A DNA stretch of 51,774 nucleotides from Bacteroidales bacterium (GCA_017380095.1 JAFOER010000006.1:1-51774), one strand, 5' to 3'. Shown: positions 1 to 18,299, counted from the first letter of the stretch. Notes: generated by a model from the letters alone, not told the origin. Program-made: numbers and translations.

Positions 1-58
1 AAATATCAGCCTCTCTTCCCAACAGAACCGGCTCAAACTCCACCTTTCTCATACTCAT
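1..58 (-). CDS. N-terminal fragment of an unidentified protein; the gene continues past the left edge
   Basis: Minus-strand ATG at 58 (second ATG at 52) opens the frame MSMRKVEFEPVLLGREADI..., which runs off the window. A TAACTTTG -7 box lies 12 nt upstream. Too short to identify. Confidence 0.3.
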   Translation of the reverse strand, partial: MSMRKVEFEPVLLGREADI

Positions 59-69
59 ACTTATTTCTG

Positions 70-77
70 CAAAGTTA
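70..77 (-). promoter_or_regulatory. Candidate Bacteroides-type -7 promoter box (TAACTTTG) for the left-edge gene
   Basis: Exact match to TAnnTTTG on the minus strand, 12 nt upstream of the ATG at 58. Confidence 0.35.
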
Positions 78-167
78 CTGATATTTTAATAATATACAAT
101 AGATTAAGCTTACATATACTTAACTTTTAACTTAAGTACTTTAACGGTACGAGAATTTATTATAATA

Positions 168-254
168 CAAGCTCTGTTTGTTTAACATAACGGGTGATGT
201 AGTCTTGAAAGCCGCTCTTCGCTCTCAGATCATAAAATTAAAAACTCTGATTGT
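168..254 (+). repeat. Direct repeat copy A (~87 nt), a decayed paralogue of copy B
   Basis: Aligns with 1303..1387. The 24-nt core ATAACGGGTGATGTAGTCTTGAAA (187..210) is identical, followed by GCCGCTC. CTG replaces the ATG that ends copy B. Confidence 0.85.
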
Positions 255-422
255 TATAATTTTCCTATAAGTTTTATCAAAGCTGCAAATAAGAATCCTA
301 TAATAAATAAACTTATACTGCATAAAATAGCGATAGAGAGATTCTGAAAGAAAGCGTTTAAAATTCCTGTCACAATCAGACACAGAAAAACAAGATTATT
401 GCTATTTCGGAGAGTGTATGTT

Positions 423-1133
423 TCATATTTTGTTCATGCGCTTTTTGAGGGCAGAGAATGCTTTCTGGTACAGTGCGGAGTCATCCATAGTGGAAAGCAT
501 CTCCTTGAAGCGGCTCATTGGGATTGTGAAGGTAAGTTCATTTTCAGGCACAAGAGGGCGTGCAGACGGATCCAGCATCCCAAGGAAGCATCTGCGGCCC
601 CCGTAGCGGTTTTCGTTTACGGCAAAGGTAATTATTGATGCACATCCAGAGCCAAACGGGGTTGTTACAGCATCGGGGGAGTTGTTGTCATAGAATGCCC
701 AGGTGGCCAGTCCAGACAACATGTCGGGAACAGCAAAGAATACCAGTGCCTGTGCTTCATCCCAATTGCCAAGTTTGTCCACCCTCACAAAATTAAGGTA
801 TGGCTTTGGAGATATCTGTATATCCAACCCCTCCACATACTCCTTCACCATCTCTTTGGACTGTTTGTAATGCTCAACCTCTGACACAAATACAGGAACC
901 CTCTCCGGCATTGGCTTGAATGCGGTGTAGAGCCCTCCTCCTCCGCAAATGACATTCTCTGCACAGAGGGTAAGCGGCTCTCCATCACGTACTTTGGAGA
1001 TACTCCCGACAATGCATTTTGGTACCGGTCTCACTTCTGCAGCAGGAGTACCTCTGTAGGCAACTGCAATTGGCAGTGGCGCAGCAGGCCCGAATGCCTC
1101 AGTATATTTTGTGATGAATTCCTGGATTGTCAT
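423..1133 (-). CDS. DUF169 domain-containing protein
   Basis: ORF 423..1247, trimmed to the first ATG (MTIQEFITKYTEAF...). Length (~236 aa) and conserved stretches (CAENVICGGGG, GSGCAS, FTIPMSRF) fit the DUF169 family as I remember it. Confidence 0.7.
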   Translation of the reverse strand: MTIQEFITKYTEAFGPAAPLPIAVAYRGTPAAEVRPVPKCIVGSISKVRDGEPLTLCAENVICGGGGLYTAFKPMPERVPVFVSEVEHYKQSKEMVKEYVEGLDIQISPKPYLNFVRVDKLGNWDEAQALVFFAVPDMLSGLATWAFYDNNSPDAVTTPFGSGCASIITFAVNENRYGGRRCFLGMLDPSARPLVPENELTFTIPMSRFKEMLSTMDDSALYQKAFSALKKRMNKI

Positions 1134-1215
1134 GTTGATAAGTTGTTTTGTTTTCAAAGATAAGAAATTCACCAATATCTTTTGTGGAATTGCTTGTACT
1201 TCCAACAAATATGTA

Positions 1216-1223
1216 TACCTTTG
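1216..1223 (+). promoter_or_regulatory. Candidate -7 promoter box (TACCTTTG) for the small-ORF transcript
   Basis: Exact TAnnTTTG match on the plus strand. The DUF169 start lies upstream and the repeat B leader, 51-aa ORF and terminator lie downstream. Confidence 0.35.
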
Positions 1224-1302
1224 CGTTGGAAAAAATATTTCAATCATAGGAGAAGCAAGCGCTCCTACGCAATTTAAACAGGGTAAGAATTTTAATATAA
1301 TT

Positions 1303-1387
1303 CAAGCCCTGTTTTTTGTTATAACGGGTGATGTAGTCTTGAAAAGCCGCTCATCGCGCTCGAATTTCAATTTAAAACTATGATTGT
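1303..1387 (+). repeat. Direct repeat copy B (~85 nt), which forms the leader and start codon of the 51-aa ORF
   Basis: Aligns with 168..254. The identical core is at 1321..1344, with a 1-nt indel (extra A at 1345) relative to copy A. Confidence 0.85.
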
Positions 1388-1535
1388 AGTCAATATTTTT
1401 TCCAACAAATGCGTAATAGAGCGCCTTAGCAAAGAGTGCAAGGATGCTCCCCGTAAACAATTTTTTATCCGAGGCCACTTCAGAGTGGTTAACGGCAAGA
1501 AGGTTTACGTAAAGCCCCATTACCGTAAAGGGTAA
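1380..1535 (+). CDS. Small, highly basic hypothetical protein of 51 aa (below the ORF-track cutoff)
   Basis: My own translation is MIVVNIFSNKCVIERLSKECKDAPRKQFFIRGHFRVVNGKKVYVKPHYRKG, with 13 K/R against 3 D/E. An in-frame TGA lies at 1329 and a strong plus-strand terminator lies 37 nt after the stop. No homology could be tested. Confidence 0.4.
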   Translation: MIVVNIFSNKCVIERLSKECKDAPRKQFFIRGHFRVVNGKKVYVKPHYRKG

Positions 1536-1571
1536 CAGGGCATAAACTTATAGCATCTTCCACCCGTTTGG

Positions 1572-1602
1572 ACACCCGCAGAGATGTGGGTGTTCTTTTA
1601 TT
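1572..1602 (+). terminator. Rho-independent terminator
   Basis: Stem ACACCCGCA / TGTGGGTGT (9 bp with one G.U) around a GAGA tetraloop, followed by TCTTTTATT. The opposite strand has no U-tract. Confidence 0.7.
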
Positions 1603-1636
1603 GGATGTAAAGTTTGGACATAATTTATAATATGTC

Positions 1637-1644
1637 TACTTTTG
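1637..1644 (+). promoter_or_regulatory. Candidate -7 promoter box (TACTTTTG) for the MazG-like gene
   Basis: Exact TAnnTTTG match, 29 nt upstream of the ATG at 1673. Confidence 0.45.
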
Positions 1645-1672
1645 TTTATCAGATAAGCTAATATATGTGTCT

Positions 1673-2002
1673 ATGGGTGAGATAAAAGAAATAACCGAAA
1701 AGATAAGACAATTTACAGAAGATAGAGATTGGGATCAGTTCCACAATCCAAAAGACTTGGCTATAGCTATTAGCATAGAGGCCAATGAATTATTGGAGTG
1801 CTTCCTTTGGAAATCCCATAATGAGGCCAAACCGGAGAAAGTAAAAGAAGAATTGGCAGATATTTTTAATTATGCATTTCTTTTGGCCGAAAAACTAAAT
1901 CTTGACCCATTGCAAATTGTAGAAGAAAAAATGCGTAAAAATGCTGAAAAATATCCTGTCGAAAAATCCCGTGGAACTGCAAAAAAATATAATGAACTAT
2001 AG
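1673..2002 (+). CDS. MazG-like nucleotide pyrophosphohydrolase (small all-alpha NTP-PPase, DCTPP1/RS21-C6-like)
   Basis: Contains RDWDQFHNPKDLAIAISIEANELLECFLWK and EELADIFNYAFLLAE, the ExxE/ExxD metal-binding helices of the MazG superfamily. The ORF-track start at 1667 is GTG; the first ATG is at 1673. Confidence 0.85.
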   Translation: MGEIKEITEKIRQFTEDRDWDQFHNPKDLAIAISIEANELLECFLWKSHNEAKPEKVKEELADIFNYAFLLAEKLNLDPLQIVEEKMRKNAEKYPVEKSRGTAKKYNEL

Positions 2003-2014
2003 CTGAGGATCTAT

Positions 2015-3748
2015 TTATCTATATGTATCCATAAATCTTTTCAGGTAATTCTGCATTCCCTGATTACATGCATATACATAACATCCTTTTATACCTCTAG
2101 TCATCATAACTTTATATGAGTTGACAATATACTTCTTTAGAGTAGCGTCGTCAACCCCACTTTTCACCTTGGTATCATAGAATTTGCTTCTGTCTATAGT
2201 AATGGTTTGGGATTGCTCATCATAATCAATCTCTTTACCAAATATTACAGCTACATAATTCAGATCATATCCCTGAGTTGTATGGACACATCCTATTTCA
2301 TTCACAGCTCCAGGTCGTAAAATCCACTCCTGATTGCTCATATTCCATACATACTTTTCGCCATCAAGTTCAATATCCTCCAAACCTTTGTCTATAGCTT
2401 GTTCCAACGTTATACACTCTTTGGATTGCCATTCCCATGAATAACCGGCAACTACTCTACACAAAGACATTAAAGAATCTTTATGGCGTATTTCCCTAAT
2501 CATAGCATTCGGATCATCCCAAATTTTAAAATCATAACTGGTGATATCCAATTTTTGGCTCTGATTTACCTGAAAAATATCATCAAGATATTGGGTATAA
2601 GCTACACCTCCCTCACATCTCATTTGAGATTTAAGGTTACTCCTATGCCGTACATCTCTTCTTACTAGTGCACTCTCAAACTGCTCGGCTGTTAGATCAG
2701 ATGACTTTACCGTCTGGTTTTCATCATAAACAAGGACACTGTATCTTGACTTGATTTGGATCATATCAAGTTGCGTTGACGTGCTTTCGTCAATATCAAG
2801 AGTCCTGCACGCTTCGTCAAATGAACCGTAACTGGTAATGCCATGCCTTCTTGCCAATCTATGTGATTCATCTACAAATATCACGTCATACTTACCGTTT
2901 TCCTTAACAACTTCTTGAGGACCAATAACCATAGCAGGATTAAGTCCTGTATCTTTTGATGCTTTGAATACGGCCTTGAATGTTTTCCTTATTGAGGTCA
3001 TAGGAACTACAAAAGCAATTTTAAGACTTCCATGCTTATCAACATACTCACGTATTCTGTTGGAAATGGATATCCTTTCAAGCAATTCCAATTGCTCCTC
3101 CGGACCAAGATCGCCATCGTTATATCTGATATTCATTGCACTCATAAGAGTATATATCATATGGATAACGACGATAGATTTACCTGTACCTGCCTTACCA
3201 CTTAAGATTGAGGTACCAGTCTTGTCACTTTCCAGGGTATCCAATATGTTACTTATAATTTCATGTGATACCGCTTCCTGTTCAGGAGTTAAAGTATTAT
3301 ATGGAGAATACTTGAACAAATTGGAGTTTCTGATTTCAGAAGAGCTGCTTTTTGTAATATTGTGTCTTTTTAATTCATTCCAGATTTCATCAACCTTACT
3401 TTGATAAAGTGCCCGTTGGTAATAATCATGTTTACATGACTGCCCTCCATTTTTATTCTGCAACTTGTACTTCTGGTCTGCCAAAAACATTTGAATCAAT
3501 GTCTGCTCAATATCCAATATTGCAGATTTATTGAATTGATCATCAAAGATAAATCGGATATTGATAAGGGATTGCCTTTCCGGATTATTAAGATGTTGAT
3601 TAAACCTGCCTCCCGCACTGGTAGTTTCACCAACATACAATTGTTTATCATTGTCAATCAAATAAACAACAGGCCAATTCTGACCTTTAGGATGCTGTTT
3701 GAGCAACTGTAAACCGTCATTACTGAATATGTAATTTCTAATTTCCAT
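2015..3748 (-). CDS. GIY-YIG nuclease domain fused to a DUF2075 (Schlafen-like) P-loop ATPase/helicase
   Basis: The N-terminus reads VVYLIDNDKQLYVGETTSAGGRFNQH...DIEQT, which fits the GIY-x9-YIG-x8-R...E pattern. Walker A is GKAGTGKS and Walker B is VIFVDESHRL. VYDENQ, HTTQGYDLNYVAVIFG and MTRGIKGCYVY are typical of DUF2075. The track start at 3763 is TTG; the first ATG is at 3748. Confidence 0.8.
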   Translation of the reverse strand: MEIRNYIFSNDGLQLLKQHPKGQNWPVVYLIDNDKQLYVGETTSAGGRFNQHLNNPERQSLINIRFIFDDQFNKSAILDIEQTLIQMFLADQKYKLQNKNGGQSCKHDYYQRALYQSKVDEIWNELKRHNITKSSSSEIRNSNLFKYSPYNTLTPEQEAVSHEIISNILDTLESDKTGTSILSGKAGTGKSIVVIHMIYTLMSAMNIRYNDGDLGPEEQLELLERISISNRIREYVDKHGSLKIAFVVPMTSIRKTFKAVFKASKDTGLNPAMVIGPQEVVKENGKYDVIFVDESHRLARRHGITSYGSFDEACRTLDIDESTSTQLDMIQIKSRYSVLVYDENQTVKSSDLTAEQFESALVRRDVRHRSNLKSQMRCEGGVAYTQYLDDIFQVNQSQKLDITSYDFKIWDDPNAMIREIRHKDSLMSLCRVVAGYSWEWQSKECITLEQAIDKGLEDIELDGEKYVWNMSNQEWILRPGAVNEIGCVHTTQGYDLNYVAVIFGKEIDYDEQSQTITIDRSKFYDTKVKSGVDDATLKKYIVNSYKVMMTRGIKGCYVYACNQGMQNYLKRFMDTYR

Positions 3749-3777
3749 CTTGGTTATGTTCAATCAATTATACTTCC

Positions 3778-5241
3778 CTACCTTATCTCCATCCTAATCC
3801 TCCTTGCCATAGGCAAGAGATTGTTGGTGCGGTTGCCGAGGTTCTTTACAAATCCGAGGCCGAGGCCGCGGTACACCAGCAGCACGTAGCCCATTGGGGC
3901 GCCGGGGAGCACCAGTGGTTCCTTTGCAAGGAACTTGAGGGCATCCTCCCTCCCCACTTCAACGGCAGAGATTCCGTCGGGAAGACACTCTGATGCCACC
4001 ATATCTGCAACCACTGCCTGCAGGGCAAAGTCTGCGTGGGGCACGTAGTCCTTTCCCTTCTTGTTTGCCACCGCTATTCCCGACAGCACTGTTCTGAGGT
4101 TTTCCTCCACAAATTTTATCTTCTCGTACAGCTCTTTCCTGTATCCCTTTACAAGATCTCCCTGCAGCACCTTCACATAGTTGTCAGGAAGATACCGGCA
4201 ATCCTTATCCATCTGTGGAGCACCTTTTTTGGCGTCTTTGCCTCCTTTTTTCTTCTTGCCCTGCGCTGCACTTCCAAAACTTGAAGGCTCCCAATCGCCC
4301 TCCTTCCGCACAACAGCCATGAACTGCCCCTCACCTTTAATTTTACACGGTACAAACTGCAACCCGCCCTTCTCCGTTAAAATGATACCTGATTCTGAAG
4401 CAGTTGTAAAAGAAGACGACGTCACAATATTACACCCTAGCCCCTCCAGCCAGGCGAGGTTGCCGTCATTTTCGTGTTTGTTGTAGGTGCAGGTGGAGTA
4501 GATGAGGTAACCGCCTGGGGCGAGGGCGGGCCAGATGTCGGCAAGGATGCGCTGCTGGCGCTGGGCGCAGAGCTGCACGTTGGCCGGGCTCCATTCACCA
4601 ATGGCCTCGGGCTCCTTGCGGAAAAGCCCTTCACCGGAACATGGAGCATCTACAACTATAAGGTCAAAGAGCCCTTCAAAGGCTCCAAAATCTGAAGGGT
4701 CATTATTGGTTACCACCACATTGTCGCAACCCCATTTGGCTATATTGTCGGCCAGTATAACAGAACGGCTCTTTATAACTTCATTGGAAACCAGAAGGGA
4801 ATCCTTGCCAAGCAAAGATACCAGATGGGTAGATTTTCCACCCGGTGCGGCACAAAGGTCAAGGGCATTCACCCGCTGGGCAAAAAATGTCCCCTCCTCC
4901 TCACCGCACCTTGCAGCATAATCCTTCTCTATGGCATTCAAGGCCAGTTCCATATACATGCTGCTGGCCTCCTGTACATAATATCCGCCGGCGTGGAACA
5001 AAGGATCCAGGGTAAATACAGGACGCTCCTTAAGATAGTGTCCCAACTCGCTCCATTTCACTTTCCCCTCAACCTCAGCAGGGAAAAATCCCTCCTCCAC
5101 TGAACTCTCATCCACCTTAAAAGGGTTCACCCTCACGGAGGTAATCTCCTCTCCGGAGCCAATAACATCAAACAATCCCTGTGCAACCTCCTCTCCAAGG
5201 GCCGCAACGGCATACTCTCTAAATTCTACAGGCAATTCCAT
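3778..5241 (-). CDS. rRNA (cytosine-C5)-methyltransferase, RsmB/RsmF (NOL1/NOP2/Sun) family
   Basis: SAM motif DLCAAPGGKSTHL and the catalytic Cys motifs DAPCSGEG and YSTCT. The track start at 5250 is TTG; ATG is at 5241. Confidence 0.85.
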   Translation of the reverse strand: MELPVEFREYAVAALGEEVAQGLFDVIGSGEEITSVRVNPFKVDESSVEEGFFPAEVEGKVKWSELGHYLKERPVFTLDPLFHAGGYYVQEASSMYMELALNAIEKDYAARCGEEEGTFFAQRVNALDLCAAPGGKSTHLVSLLGKDSLLVSNEVIKSRSVILADNIAKWGCDNVVVTNNDPSDFGAFEGLFDLIVVDAPCSGEGLFRKEPEAIGEWSPANVQLCAQRQQRILADIWPALAPGGYLIYSTCTYNKHENDGNLAWLEGLGCNIVTSSSFTTASESGIILTEKGGLQFVPCKIKGEGQFMAVVRKEGDWEPSSFGSAAQGKKKKGGKDAKKGAPQMDKDCRYLPDNYVKVLQGDLVKGYRKELYEKIKFVEENLRTVLSGIAVANKKGKDYVPHADFALQAVVADMVASECLPDGISAVEVGREDALKFLAKEPLVLPGAPMGYVLLVYRGLGLGFVKNLGNRTNNLLPMARRIRMEIR

Positions 5242-5253
5242 AATTCCCAAAAA

Positions 5254-6981
5254 TTAGTCACCATCTTCGGCAGTACGAGCCACCTTAACTTCCTGGCCAC
5301 GCTCCTCTTCCGATTCAAAAATATATCTGCAAGGCTCCTCCACTCCCCAAAGGGCATAACGCCTGAACTGCACAGGCATCCCCTCCAGGAACCTTCCATA
5401 ATCCTTAAGTTCCTCACGTGTCCAGTACACCTCACTTATGGCAGAAATGCGTGGAAAAATCGCATACTCCACATCGGCCGGAGTGGCATAATACTCTGTC
5501 CACAGGCACCCCTGGCCGCCAATCACATTCTCCAGCACTGCCGCAGAAAGGGTATCCGGTGTAGGATCATAGTTGTACACTGTATCCAGAGCCACCAGCC
5601 TGAACATATGGGCCAGACGCTTCTCATCGGGCCTCTGCTTGTAGTTCAGGTAACTCTTGCCGTTGGGGGTCATGATTATCTTGTGTCCGCTCTCAGCCGC
5701 AGGAACCCATCGCTGGCCGCCCCTCCATACCATCACAGCCACATCCTCTGCCAGGCCGTTGTCCACCATCTCATCCCATCCAAGCGGAATCCTCCCCCTG
5801 GCCTTGATCATATCACCAACCCTCTGTGCAAAATACTTCTGCAACCCTTTCTCATCGCCCAAACCGTGCTCCTTAATGAAAGCCTGTGTCCTTGGCGACT
5901 CTTTCCACCATCTGTGACAGCACTCATCCGCCCCCATATGGATATACGGCCCCGGAAAAATGTCCATCAGCTCCCCAAAGACATCCTCAAGGAAAGCAAA
6001 CGCCTCCCCACTTGGAGCCATAACATTATTGAGCTTATTGTAAATGCCCCAGGTAATGGCTGGTTTAACATCCCCGTTGCTCTCAGTTCCAAACTGGGGA
6101 TAAGTGGCCAGAATAGCCATACAGTGCCCCGGAAGGTCAATCTCCGGAACAATGGTAATATACCTCTGCGCCGCATACTCCACAACCTCCTTCATCTGCT
6201 CCACGGTATAATAACCGCCATATCTTGTAGAATCAACGCCGGTACCGGGATACAGTCCAATAATTGTACCGTCCCTGTACGAACCCACCTCATTAAGGCG
6301 CGGGTGCTTGCGGCTCTCAATCCTCCAACCCTGGTCATCTGTAAGGTGCCAATGGAAATAATTCAGCTTATGGAGCGCCAGATAATCAATGTACCTCTTC
6401 ACAAACTCCACCGGCATAAAATGTCTTGCAACATCCAAATGCATACCCCTGTACTCAAACGCCGGCGCATCCTCAATCCTCACCGCAGGAACCGCAATCT
6501 TCTTCCCGACAGTCTTCCCGTCTGCCTCCCCTGCAATCTCCCCTTCGCCATTCACAGCACTGTGAGCCACTTCAGGTACCGGCAACAGCTGCAGCAATGT
6601 CTGCACACCATAGAACAGACCGGGCTCATTCTTCCCTACTACAGTAATCTTTCGGGGAAGAACCTCAAGGGAATATGCCCCCTGAACTGCGGCAGAGTCC
6701 TCTTCTATCCTCAATTCAATCTTGCGGGCACCCCATTTGCGCGAGGTTACCCCATAATGCTCCTGCAGATAGCCCTTAAGGAAAGCTGCTGAATTTTCAG
6801 TACCCTCACCCTTACAAACAACAGCGGCACTCCCGCCAAGCAGGAATGCCCCGTTATCCAAAACCTCAATACTTGCCGGATGAGGAACTATTGCATTTAC
6901 CTTTACAGGCTCCACAGAGGAGCAGCTTGCAGCGCAAATACAAATTACAGCAAATATCAGGAAACAGTTTCTATAATTCAT
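5254..6981 (-). CDS. Beta-N-acetylhexosaminidase (GH20), secreted or lipoprotein
   Basis: HWHLTDDQGWR and HMGADE catalytic-region motifs. The N-terminal signal peptide contains Cys (FAVICICAASCSS). Confidence 0.9.
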   Translation of the reverse strand: MNYRNCFLIFAVICICAASCSSVEPVKVNAIVPHPASIEVLDNGAFLLGGSAAVVCKGEGTENSAAFLKGYLQEHYGVTSRKWGARKIELRIEEDSAAVQGAYSLEVLPRKITVVGKNEPGLFYGVQTLLQLLPVPEVAHSAVNGEGEIAGEADGKTVGKKIAVPAVRIEDAPAFEYRGMHLDVARHFMPVEFVKRYIDYLALHKLNYFHWHLTDDQGWRIESRKHPRLNEVGSYRDGTIIGLYPGTGVDSTRYGGYYTVEQMKEVVEYAAQRYITIVPEIDLPGHCMAILATYPQFGTESNGDVKPAITWGIYNKLNNVMAPSGEAFAFLEDVFGELMDIFPGPYIHMGADECCHRWWKESPRTQAFIKEHGLGDEKGLQKYFAQRVGDMIKARGRIPLGWDEMVDNGLAEDVAVMVWRGGQRWVPAAESGHKIIMTPNGKSYLNYKQRPDEKRLAHMFRLVALDTVYNYDPTPDTLSAAVLENVIGGQGCLWTEYYATPADVEYAIFPRISAISEVYWTREELKDYGRFLEGMPVQFRRYALWGVEEPCRYIFESEEERGQEVKVARTAEDGD

Positions 6982-7463: not shown

Positions 7464-8096
7464 TTACTTGCCCCAAATTTCAGGATTGATTCTCCACTCC
7501 TTAAGGACATCAAGATCCTCCGGCTTAACGTAATTCTCCTCCACTGCCTTCTCCAAAAGTGCCTCATAGTGGCTTAGAGTGTGAAGCTCAACATTTGCAT
7601 TCTCAAATGCCCTGATAGACTTGATGAAGTTATAAGAGAAGATTGCAACCATACCAAGTACGTTTGCGCCAGCCTTATGCAAAGCGTCAACTGCTGCAAG
7701 GCTGCTTCCTCCGGTAGAGATAAGGTCCTCTACAACTACAACCCTTGCCTTCTCAGGAAGGTCACCCTCAACCTGAGCACCTGTACCATGATCCTTCGGT
7801 TTAGGTCTTACATAAACGAATGGAAGGCCAAGAACCTCTGCCACCATCATACCATAGGCAATGGCTCCAGTTGCAACACCTGCAATTACCTCAACATCCT
7901 TGAAATGTTTTTTGATAATCTCCACAAATGCCTCATAAACAACCTTACGTGCTGCAGGGTAAGACAAAACTTTTCTATTATCACAATAAATTGGAGACTT
8001 CCAGCCGGAAGCCCAAGTAAAAGGTTTCTCAGGACTCAACTTTACAGCTTTGATATCCAACAGCTGTTTAGCAACGATTTTTTCTATAGATTCCAT
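7464..8096 (-). CDS. pyrE: Orotate phosphoribosyltransferase
   Basis: PRPP-binding loop VVVVEDLISTGGSS. Length 210 aa and good end-to-end resemblance to PyrE. Confidence 0.92.
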   Translation of the reverse strand: MESIEKIVAKQLLDIKAVKLSPEKPFTWASGWKSPIYCDNRKVLSYPAARKVVYEAFVEIIKKHFKDVEVIAGVATGAIAYGMMVAEVLGLPFVYVRPKPKDHGTGAQVEGDLPEKARVVVVEDLISTGGSSLAAVDALHKAGANVLGMVAIFSYNFIKSIRAFENANVELHTLSHYEALLEKAVEENYVKPEDLDVLKEWRINPEIWGK

Positions 8097-8186
8097 AATT
8101 CATCATTATCTTTGTTTGCAAATATAACTAAAACCGGCATCATATATCGCGGTTACTGCAAATATAGTGAAATCATTTTAAATTTT

Positions 8187-8810
8187 ATGTACAGCATATA
8201 CTTTAACAACCGAATTTTAAGAATTTGTAACCAGGAAGCAACAAATCAGTACAACCCCAATGCCGTTGTGCTGCACTCTCCTGATGTTAAAACACTCCAG
8301 GAGCTCCCTTGTTTATTTGACAGGAACGAAAACATCAAATTGCTGTGCATATCCACTCTTCCCTGCAAATTGGAGGAAACCCTTGTCCACCTTTGCAGCA
8401 TCCTCACCCCAATAAACGCCGGCGGCGGACTGGTGCAGAACACAGCAGGAGAATACCTACTCATACACCGCAACGGTCTGTGGGACCTCCCTAAGGGAAA
8501 ACAGGAAGAGGGGGAAGATATTGCCATCACCGCATTACGTGAGGTGGAAGAAGAGTGCGGCATCACCGGCCTTGAGCAGGGAGAACTGCTGTGCATCACC
8601 CACCACACCTACCACATGAACGGCCTCCACATGCTCAAGCATACCTACTGGTACAACATGAAATATTCAGGCGACTGCACCGTTACCGTTCCCCAAACAG
8701 AAGAGGGCATCAGCCGTTGCGAATGGGTACCGGCCGCCAAACTCCCTGAATACCTGCAAAACACCTACCCTTCCATAAAGAAAGTATTTGAAGAGGCAGG
8801 GTTACTATAG
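8187..8810 (+). CDS. NUDIX hydrolase
   Basis: Nudix box GKQEEGEDIAITALREVEEECGI. The ORF 7581..8810 is an antisense-extended frame; the first plausible ATG after the pyrE start is at 8187. Confidence 0.8.
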   Translation: MYSIYFNNRILRICNQEATNQYNPNAVVLHSPDVKTLQELPCLFDRNENIKLLCISTLPCKLEETLVHLCSILTPINAGGGLVQNTAGEYLLIHRNGLWDLPKGKQEEGEDIAITALREVEEECGITGLEQGELLCITHHTYHMNGLHMLKHTYWYNMKYSGDCTVTVPQTEEGISRCEWVPAAKLPEYLQNTYPSIKKVFEEAGLL

Positions 8811-8830
8811 GGATAATTGCCAAAAAAAGA

Positions 8831-8858
8831 AAAATCTGCACTTTACCCGCAGATTTTT
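8831..8858 (+). terminator. Rho-independent terminator after the NUDIX gene
   Basis: AAAATCTGC (8831..8839) pairs with GCAGATTTT (8849..8857). The 3' arm runs into a T-tract. Confidence 0.6.
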
Positions 8859-8882
8859 ACCCTATTTACGCATATCATTATG

Positions 8883-8890
8883 TATATTTG
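8883..8890 (+). promoter_or_regulatory. Candidate -7 promoter box (TATATTTG) for the DUF4160-DUF2442 pair
   Basis: Exact TAnnTTTG match, 60 nt upstream of the ATG at 8950 and downstream of the NUDIX terminator. Confidence 0.4.
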
Positions 8891-8949
8891 TGGAGAAAGA
8901 GAGGGAGGGGTAATGATAATTTAATTATTAACCTTAAATTATTATTACT

Positions 8950-9207
8950 ATGCCACAAATCAGCAGATTTTATGGGATTATCATTTTTATGAACTTTAAA
9001 GATCACTGTCCCCCTCACTTCCATGCATGGTACAATGAGTACCGTATCACTGTCAATATCGCAGATGGAGAGATTAATGGATCTATGCCGGCACGTGCAA
9101 TTAAACTGATATTGGAGTGGTGGGAAATTAACAAGGATCAACTTACTGAGTATTGGTACAGAGCACAAACAGGCAAGCCTCTTGGAACCATTGCTCCTCT
9201 TAAATAA
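8950..9207 (+). CDS. DUF4160 domain-containing protein
   Basis: MPQISRFYGIIIFMNFKDHCPPHFHAWY is the characteristic N-terminal signature of DUF4160. Length 85 aa. Confidence 0.85.
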   Translation: MPQISRFYGIIIFMNFKDHCPPHFHAWYNEYRITVNIADGEINGSMPARAIKLILEWWEINKDQLTEYWYRAQTGKPLGTIAPLK

Positions 9208-9213
9208 GAAGAT

Positions 9214-9456
9214 ATGTTGGAAATCATTAAGGCTGAATATCTGTCTGATTACAAACTTAAGGTATGGTTCAACAATCAGCAAGTCAGGATTGTGGATTTT
9301 GAGAACAGTTTGGATGGAGAAGTTTTTGCTCCTTTGAGAGACAAAGCCTACTTCAAAGAATTCACAATTCCTTTTAATACTGTTCAATGGGATAATGGAG
9401 CAGATTTTGCTCCAGAATACCTTTACAGTATAAGTATCCCTACCTCAAATCAGTAA
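9214..9456 (+). CDS. DUF2442 domain-containing protein
   Basis: 80 aa. YKLKVWFNNQQVRIVDF...VQWDNGADFAPEYLY fits the DUF2442 pattern. Lies 6 nt downstream of the DUF4160 gene. Confidence 0.8.
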   Translation: MLEIIKAEYLSDYKLKVWFNNQQVRIVDFENSLDGEVFAPLRDKAYFKEFTIPFNTVQWDNGADFAPEYLYSISIPTSNQ

Positions 9457-10006
9457 CCACTGCAGTAGGGAAATCATCTAGATTTAGGACAAAAGAGGAT
9501 GCATCCACGGTATCCTCTTTTTTTGCATCCAGTATCCCGATAGTGTATACAGCACCGGAGGCGGCGCGGAGTTCGATTTTGTCGGGAAGGGCACCGGGAG
9601 CACCGGAAGTGGCTTTTTTGCCCCCCTTATAAGTTGTTACCGTGTAGAATTTGCCTGCATGCTGCAGGATTGCAAAGGGATTGTCCATTATCCCCTGAAG
9701 GGTTGTATTTGCCGCCGAAAGGTTGCCGTCGGAACCCGTTGGTGCCGAAGCACCCGTTGCACCGGCAGAAGCCACCTTTTGCAGCACTATTTCATCTATC
9801 TCCTTCTGGTAAATGCCTTTGGTTTCCCCGTCAGATACAACGAGCATCTGGGGTGTTTCCATACGGTAGGAATCGCCGATGGCAAGCACCGTGCCGGAGC
9901 CTTCATACATAACTTTCCCAGAAGGTTCAACTGCCTTGAAGCTGAAAGATAAAGTGGCGCCCGCAATGAGGAACGCCACTAAAGTGTTTATGAATCCGTT
10001 AGCCAT
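9440..10006 (-). CDS. lolA: LolA-like outer-membrane lipoprotein carrier protein
   Basis: Lies directly downstream of ftsK, the conserved Bacteroidota arrangement. Has a signal-like N-terminus (MANGFINTLVAFLIAG) and a beta-rich body. Start moved to the ATG at 10006, which overlaps the ftsK stop by 8 nt. Confidence 0.6.
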   Translation of the reverse strand: MANGFINTLVAFLIAGATLSFSFKAVEPSGKVMYEGSGTVLAIGDSYRMETPQMLVVSDGETKGIYQKEIDEIVLQKVASAGATGASAPTGSDGNLSAANTTLQGIMDNPFAILQHAGKFYTVTTYKGGKKATSGAPGALPDKIELRAASGAVYTIGILDAKKEDTVDASSFVLNLDDFPTAVVTDLR

Positions 10007-18297: not shown

Positions 18298-18299
18298 AG

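Follow-up and report, generated by a model that had tools for sequence, protein, structure and literature searches.

A MazG and nuclease-helicase gene pair after the rsmF gene of an uncultured Bacteroidales bacterium as a candidate two-gene defence cassette

What is the role of the AT-rich islet that lies directly downstream of rsmF (positions 1134-3777) in a contig of an uncultured Bacteroidales bacterium (GCA_017380095.1 JAFOER010000006.1:1-51774)? Hereafter, the window is the whole analysed stretch of 51,774 nt (51.8 kb), and coordinates are counted from its first letter. In the original prediction, three genes of the islet were proposed to cooperate in a possible anti-phage or nucleic-acid surveillance module, namely those for a nuclease-helicase of 577 amino acids (aa), a MazG-type nucleoside triphosphate (NTP) pyrophosphohydrolase of 109 aa and a basic protein of 51 aa. 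Based on the results below, we suggest, with a probability of about 55%, that the segment 1544-3777 is a horizontally acquired two-gene defence cassette, which is situated in a hotspot downstream of rsmF and combines an Nhi-like nuclease-helicase bearing a GIY-YIG head with a DCTPP1-like pyrophosphatase partner.

Whether the genes belong together was assessed in both directions. For the forward scan, one genome per species was taken (185,579 species); at least 579 relatives of the helicase were found, and linkage was counted in the best 80. The hosts of these 80 relatives were members of the candidate phyla radiation (CPR)/Patescibacteria, Bacteroidota, Firmicutes/Mollicutes, Proteobacteria, Fibrobacter and Methanomassiliicoccales archaea. 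Less than 2 kb from the helicase gene, 73 of the 80 species genomes had a MazG homologue with 35-68% identity to the window MazG, and in 69 the distance was less than 200 nt. In 56 loci, this homologue was located directly upstream on the same strand, usually with a gap of 5-45 nt. Two of the seven loci lacking a MazG neighbour were cut off upstream. The reverse scan was performed on metagenomes with MazG alone as the query, using a narrowed MazG alignment, as the first was too diverse. Among 80 MazG loci, a DUF2075 helicase gene stood directly downstream in 59, and seven were true exceptions; the remaining 14 had less than 1.3 kb of downstream sequence, so that 59 of the 66 informative loci were positive. 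The co-occurrence of DUF2075 helicase and small MazG genes, a check named in the original prediction, was recovered from either side. The same arrangement was present on the plasmid pBMB431 of B. thuringiensis HD-1, in which a 'nucleotide pyrophosphohydrolase' gene is directly upstream of one for a 'DUF2075 domain-containing protein' (32% identity), and the pair adjoins HNH, zeta-toxin and SocA genes.

In addition, the pairwise identities of MazG and helicase proteins were correlated (Mantel r = 0.55, reached by none of 999 permutations). Flanking synteny was shared with no other locus in 62 of the 80 loci, so only the pair was conserved. A 73% identical pair with the same convergent arrangement was found at another chromosomal site in a related Bacteroidales bacterium. 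Based on the forward, reverse, flank and covariation evidence, the unit of inheritance is the pair, and it is strongly backed that helicase and MazG form a conserved two-gene functional pair across bacteria and archaea. Thus, of the three genes supposed to cooperate, two are adjacent across phyla in both scans, and the 51-aa open reading frame (ORF) drops out, as described below.

The site occupied by the pair was compared among close relatives. Sister contigs matched the window at ~96-98% identity as far as the rsmF stop codon, and synteny was lost exactly at 3778. After rsmF, L089 carried a Type I restriction-modification (R-M) system, L092 and L093 a different, EcoEI-like Type I R-M system, and L177 a HigA-like/Gp49-like pair and, after it, a Type I R-M system; in L090 and L091, the site was 'empty', the next conserved gene being separated from rsmF by just ~0.85 kb of non-coding DNA. 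The GC content of these other occupants was 0.385-0.416, versus 0.48 in the flanks. One contig, L004, was 99.9% identical to the window over 5102-1544, helicase and MazG genes included, and diverged at 1544, after which other genes followed. Taken together, the divergence of L004 at 1544 and that of the sister strains at 3778 delimit the cassette to 1544-3777. Since the same site holds a Type I R-M system, a HigBA-like pair with an R-M system, or nothing, it is a strain-variable defence hotspot. The comparison after the rsmB/F orthologue therefore went as the original prediction implied: the presence of the islet varies among strains, and R-M and toxin-antitoxin (TA) genes or an empty site take its place.

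Composition sets the same region apart. The GC content of 1134-3777 was 36.1%, versus 45.9% for the whole window; it was 0.359 in the cassette proper and 51-52% in the adjoining rsmF and hexosaminidase genes (rsmF 0.52). This was the lowest-GC 2.6-kb stretch of the window (z = -5.8 against all windows outside), and its tetranucleotide distance from the window average was 0.433, versus 0.20 +/- 0.03 elsewhere (maximum 0.31). Both windowed GC and k-mer deviation, therefore, single out 1134-3777, and the islet is compositionally foreign. The abrupt fall to the mid-30s % that had been noticed by eye at the stop of the RsmB/F-like gene coincides with the synteny break, and comparison among strains places the right edge (3777/3778) precisely at the rsmF stop codon. 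The left edge given in the original prediction, 1133, is compositional only, the cassette ending near 1544 by strain comparison, and the strain-variable region extends past the cassette, through a DUF169 gene, to ~171. No RNA family was found by an Rfam scan of 1-6000. A tRNA-associated islet was rejected, the sole tRNA being distant, at 18299.

The larger gene of the pair (2015..3748, minus strand) encodes the 577-aa protein, in which a GIY-YIG nuclease is fused to a DUF2075 helicase of the Schlafen-group-3, superfamily 1B (SF1B) type (PF09848, 1.6e-60). The ATG start at 3748 agrees with homologues; in exact-protein look-ups, the longest ORFs with TTG starts were unmatched, proteins beginning at the ATG codons of 3748 and 5241 were on record, and the exact 577-aa protein was present on four metagenome contigs. 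The nuclease domain (aa ~25-100, 3449..3676, minus strand, PF01541) scored 23.6 bits when the N-terminal domain was searched in isolation (cut-off 22.6 bits), and PF01541 was matched by 18 of 20 homologous N-terminal domains, with a best value of 3.9e-8. The best profile matches of this domain in PDB were weak (E 0.02-0.1) and mostly to GIY-YIG proteins, including the UvrC N-terminus, T4 endonuclease II and I-TevI. The columns Y29, Y38, G40, R48, H52, E81 and N98 were invariant, and the secondary structure in the AlphaFold2 model consisted of strands at 27-32 and 36-42, a helix at 45-53, a strand at 63-68 and a helix at 74-91. The protein, thus, has both tyrosines, the catalytic Arg, Glu and Asn, and the beta-beta-alpha-beta-alpha core of the GIY-YIG superfamily.

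The SF1B helicase core (2039..3271, minus strand) includes Walker A (GKAGTGKS, aa 184-191, 3176-3199) and Walker B (FVDESHRL, 2855-2878), and K190, D293 and E294 were invariant in 44 homologues. The AlphaFold2 model built from 44 homologues had a predicted local distance difference test (pLDDT) value of 87.4 and a predicted template-modelling score (pTM) of 0.84. The nearest structures found by Foldseek were Upf1, SLFN11, RecD2, RecD, coronavirus nsp13 and T4 Dda, with a template-modelling score of about 0.3 for the best matches, none of which covered the full architecture. A full-length sequence-profile search of PDB with the helicase protein gave no match, and a Pfam scan of the 577-aa protein gave none to PF04326 (Schlafen/AlbA_2). 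The predicted fusion architecture, convergent with MazG, was borne out by the Pfam and N-domain scans.

The second gene (1673..2002, plus strand) encodes the 109-aa MazG-like protein, an all-alpha NTP pyrophosphatase homologous to DCTPP1/RS21-C6 (PF12643, 3.7e-21), and its assignment in the original prediction was correct. The protein aligned over its full length to mouse RS21-C6/DCTPP1 (PDB 2a3q/6sqw, dCTP pyrophosphatase 1; E 7e-19) and matched PDB 4qgp, deposited as 'pyrophosphatase', at E 5e-18. It has the ExxE(n)ExxD motif and the four-helix MazG fold of all-alpha NTP pyrophosphatases. The metal-binding residues E36, E39, E60 and D63 (ExxE...ExxD) were invariant in 18 partner MazGs, and aromatic W and Y positions were conserved in the alignment to DCTPP1/4qgp. 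Based on this homology, the substrate may be dCTP or a 5-modified dCTP. The catalytic residues are, hence, invariant in all three domains of the pair (GIY-YIG, helicase and MazG).

In the window, the two genes are convergent, with 13 nt between their stop codons. A Bacteroidota-type promoter motif (TTTG, 20 nt, TACTTTTG; pattern TTTG-N-TAnnTTTG) was found at 1613..1644 on the plus strand, 29 nt 5' of the MazG start, and is one of eight matches to this pattern in the window, versus 1.8 expected. The helicase start is only 29 nt from the rsmF stop codon, which makes an own helicase promoter doubtful. The promoter-like box supposed for each unit is, therefore, seen for MazG and questionable for the helicase. 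At the outer cassette edge, within the segment shared with L004, the terminator scan picked up a GC-rich hairpin followed by a T-run (1570..1595, plus strand), which is terminator-like and agrees with the terminator noted after the 51-aa ORF.

Beyond these loci, the helicase family comprised 746 representatives at 50% clustering (E <= 1e-30). Only two relatives were found in 2.9 million viral contigs of IMG/VR, versus the at least 579 in species genomes, and GenBank phages gave four weak matches, three of which were unverified faecal contigs. Based on these counts, a phage-borne module was rejected. Relatives were also present on 109 plasmid records, mostly Bacillus megaplasmids. The neighbours at other loci include SoFic, GmrSD, PIN, AbiEii-like, SocA, Cas9/Cas1, Type IV restriction endonuclease and AriA-like genes.

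The family also varies in architecture. In roughly half of the MazG-linked helicases of the metagenome set, similarity to the 577-aa protein is confined to the DUF2075 part; their N-terminal region of ~260 residues is a different one, which has no Pfam match and shows weak similarity to PDC-S41 among the PADLOC 2023 models, used here for the defence-profile search. These alternative helicases are 617-796 aa long (L095, L101, L107, L113, L134, L140, L151 and L172), and some have a C-terminal Peptidase_S24 domain. Their loci often begin with a gene for a tetratricopeptide repeat (TPR) protein of 515-653 aa, which overlaps the MazG start, so TPR, MazG and alternative-head helicase may represent a three-gene variant. 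Among the GIY-YIG-DUF2075 proteins, a C-terminal LexA-like Peptidase_S24 was assigned to P0204, P0205, P0209, P0221, P0234, P0237 and P0297, and also to P0108; furthermore, an HTH_3 domain is present in P0244, and P0264 begins with an HSDR_N region. The exchange of heads and the addition of sensor-like domains are typical of conflict systems. The addition of S24 together with the head swap suggests that activity can be coupled to RecA or single-stranded DNA (ssDNA) signals. A further arrangement was observed in a related Bacteroidales (L181, 10187-12160), where a bPH_1 gene and one for a 462-aa SLFN_AlbA_2 (PF04326) protein resembling PADLOC PDC-S31 come after the pair; a eukaryotic-type Schlafen is thus represented there by both its halves, encoded by separate genes within 3 kb.

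Based on the above, we suggest the following mechanism for the cassette. The helicase would load on single-stranded or forked DNA that arises as an invading phage or other mobile element replicates, as with Nhi, and translocate by ATP hydrolysis, and the GIY-YIG head would nick or cleave the DNA. The MazG partner, possibly in physical contact with the helicase, would hydrolyse dCTP or 5-modified dCTP to the monophosphate. This could deprive the replicating phage of building blocks for its DNA, above all of modified cytosine nucleotides; alternatively, it could prevent nucleotides set free by the degradation of foreign DNA from entering the host chromosome. A GmrSD-type gene adjoins the helicase in two MazG-less loci (L031, 1953-3878; L038, 5565-7307). 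GmrSD is a restriction enzyme dependent on modified cytosine DNA, and these neighbours are a weak hint towards phages with modified bases. Extending the proposal to the whole family, we offer tentatively, and with more doubt than confidence, that the pair is a widespread unnamed two-gene immune system of archaea and bacteria, those of the CPR included, in which the pyrophosphatase destroys modified dCTP or depletes dCTP and a Schlafen-type helicase with an exchangeable head, sometimes S24-gated, cuts phage DNA.

Several observations weigh against a defence role. The PADLOC matches were all partial, with Nhi/AbiO matching the helicase region and PDC-S14 the nuclease head. Against the Nhi model PDLC02372 (470 positions), the window protein scored 32 bits (1e-8) over positions 121-225 only, and the best family member was matched over positions 171-436 (7e-17); of PDC-S14, a single-gene model of ~300 aa, only the GIY-YIG region (aa 7-143) was matched, at 27-31 bits. 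MazG matched no PADLOC model. The convergent genes do not form an operon in the window, and co-regulation is not evident here. The 125 flanking proteins mix defence and TA genes with many housekeeping genes. Ten CPR loci, mostly of Nomurabacteria, Paceibacteria and Saccharibacteria, have recurrent stress and repair neighbours, namely MsrA, MsrB, TspO, YdjM and a YgjP-like peptidase, and also share DUF1905; these small genes stand at varying positions around the module. Finally, the LexA-like S24 domain was present in seven of the ten long GIY-YIG members tested. Among the CPR examples, L033, L034, L037 and L053 have those small genes within ~8 kb, and a SocA-type antitoxin occurs in L034 and L053.

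Some of these points lead to the main rival of the defence reading, a module for DNA damage or replication stress, which we regard as unlikely. According to it, MazG would clear non-canonical or damaged (d)NTPs, and the helicase would process stalled forks or excise lesions. The DCTPP1/RS21-C6 homology of MazG, which also counts against defence, would fit, as a house-cleaning role of this family is established. The nuclease head has a weak profile similarity to the UvrC N-terminus, and both UvrC and SLFN11 work on DNA that is damaged or under stress; against this stands the helicase part, whose closest characterised relatives are Nhi and AbiO. The LexA-like S24 of the long members and of some alternative-head partners would likewise suit a damage response, although the nuclease heads of the same family are swapped as in conflict systems. 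The CPR loci contribute MsrA, MsrB, the SOS-regulated YdjM family and TspO with the YgjP-like protein as neighbours, and the very presence of the pair in reduced CPR genomes favours a stress function; the overall distribution, however, is patchy and cross-domain, with unrelated flanks. In the window itself, the cassette has a foreign composition and a strain-variable presence at a site otherwise holding R-M and TA systems, which argues against such a function.

That the pair serves mobile elements as a selfish or maintenance module is improbable in our estimation. Such a module would be of the addiction type or directed against competitors (for example, anti-plasmid), with the helicase as a potential toxin and MazG restraining it or its nucleotide cofactor. 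The 109 plasmid records, mostly Bacillus megaplasmids, are in its favour, but most loci are chromosomal, and no adjoining integrase or transfer genes were seen at them. The frequent TA neighbours (zeta toxin, SocA, PIN and AbiEii-like genes) and the movement of the cassette between chromosomal sites also agree with such a module, while the sizes and domains of the two proteins are unlike those of known TA pairs, and MazG has no PADLOC match. An incidental adjacency of two unrelated accessory genes in an AT-rich islet, to which the convergent orientation and the own promoter motif of MazG might point, is very improbable, being contradicted by the 73/80 and 59/66 linkage across bacterial phyla and archaea with unrelated flanks.

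The remaining features of the islet lie outside the cassette. The small ORF of 51 aa (1380..1535, plus strand) exists where it had been predicted; it has no Pfam match and 16 Bacteroidales homologues. Their N-terminus varies, but the motif RGHFRV..KKVY.K.H.R (VRGHFRVVNGKKVYVKPHYRK) at the C-terminus, usually with a CxxC upstream of it, is invariant. Judging from this conservation, it probably encodes a real small protein of a Bacteroidales family. The ORF was not found in L004, the cassette of which is 99.9% identical, in the module loci searched in the species genomes or in the gene tables of L181-L185, and Bacteroidales homologues were found at other loci that lack MazG-like and DUF2075 genes. 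One of them (L186, 5001-5159), from another species, has strain-variable AbiEii/DUF6922 and Vsr genes as neighbours, and neither a PF12643 nor a DUF2075 gene in its vicinity. Based on its absence from L004 and the other examined module loci, and on homologues occurring without the pair, membership of the ORF in the module was rejected. The leader of the family is conserved and consists of a hairpin and T-run followed by GATGnAGT..TTGAA.GCCGCTC; the family may mark the edges of variable islands.

In the window, this leader is copy B (1286..1387, plus strand) of a direct repeat of ~105 nt, copy A of which is at 152-254. The copies are 82% identical with an exact 24-nt core (two occurrences in the window versus 0 expected) and bracket the DUF169 gene (423..1133, minus strand, PF02596), which has a host-like GC content of 0.494. 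DUF169 is strain-variable, being absent from L090/L091, and is not part of the module. The empty-site strains have one full repeat copy and a 42-nt inverted partial copy (L090, 8907-9089 and 9685-9726) and no DUF169, which suggests that this gene was gained or lost by recombination between the repeat copies. That the repeats themselves are coding was rejected by inspection, since the frame is not kept between the copies.

A second low-GC patch was observed at ~8100-9500 (GC 0.33-0.38 at about 7950-8400), adjoining NUDIX and DUF4160/DUF2442 genes. Gene calls at this patch vary among the sister strains, some contigs having no DUF4160 or NUDIX gene. A 109-aa ORF near the NUDIX gene in sister strains was considered as a MazG candidate and rejected, as it is not MazG-like.

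If the defence reading holds, the pair would be a new family of several hundred 50%-identity clusters in both prokaryotic domains, including the reduced genomes of CPR bacteria, in which few defences are presumed to exist. One cassette would couple the cutting of DNA to the manipulation of the nucleotide pool, and, on the family-wide proposal, the prokaryotic ancestry of Schlafen helicases would be linked to nucleotide-pool immunity. Human relatives of both enzymes play a part in antiviral restriction, in replication stress and in the response to drugs, and the pair would provide a tractable prokaryotic model for Schlafen-type helicases and DCTPP1-type enzymes. The hotspot downstream of rsmF is, furthermore, a natural experiment, with different cargo at the same site in sister strains.

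In the original prediction, the combination was not recognised as a named system; the PADLOC matches were partial, and no paper in the library that was searched describes a DUF2075 helicase paired with MazG. The nearest characterised proteins are Nhi (SERP2475) of Staphylococcus epidermidis and lactococcal AbiO, which likewise join an N-terminal nuclease and a DUF2075 SF1B helicase in one polypeptide and occur on plasmids and in variable islands. The window protein shares with Nhi the DUF2075-type SF1B core with Walker A and Walker B. The head of Nhi is a PD-(D/E)XK nuclease, in contrast to the GIY-YIG head found here. Nhi works as a single gene, whereas the window family has a MazG neighbour in about 90% of loci, and this conserved partner suggests a two-gene unit. 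Nhi is an anti-phage enzyme that nicks and unwinds phage DNA and is thought to respond to the single-stranded DNA-binding protein of the phage (bioRxiv 10.1101/776245; PMC12904381). That DUF2075 can be fused to GIY-YIG was described in 2019, when a role in phage attenuation was suggested for it (PMC6765204).

The comparison extends to eukaryotes and to nucleotide-directed defences. The helicases of the group-3 Schlafens SLFN11, SLFN5 and SLFN13 belong to the same Pfam family, PF09848, SLFN11 being among the best structural matches, and the nuclease-plus-helicase logic is common to both. Schlafens have antiviral and replication-stress roles. Their N-terminal Schlafen/AlbA_2 RNase domain is replaced here by GIY-YIG, and the structurally aligned residues are only ~11-12% identical. 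The window MazG resembles DCTPP1/RS21-C6 in its full-length alignment and intact ExxE...ExxD metal site but differs in its position beside a nuclease-helicase in an accessory cassette. With the dCTP deaminase and dGTPase defences, the pair may share the logic of removing a deoxynucleotide that the phage needs; there is no homology, however, and those defences are single genes without a nuclease-helicase partner. Hachiman (HamAB) and Gabija (GajAB) similarly direct a helicase sensor or motor and a nuclease against abnormal DNA, GajB being only a distant structural match. Their helicases are of other families; the 577-aa protein, in contrast, unites both activities in one chain, and its partner gene encodes a nucleotide pyrophosphatase.

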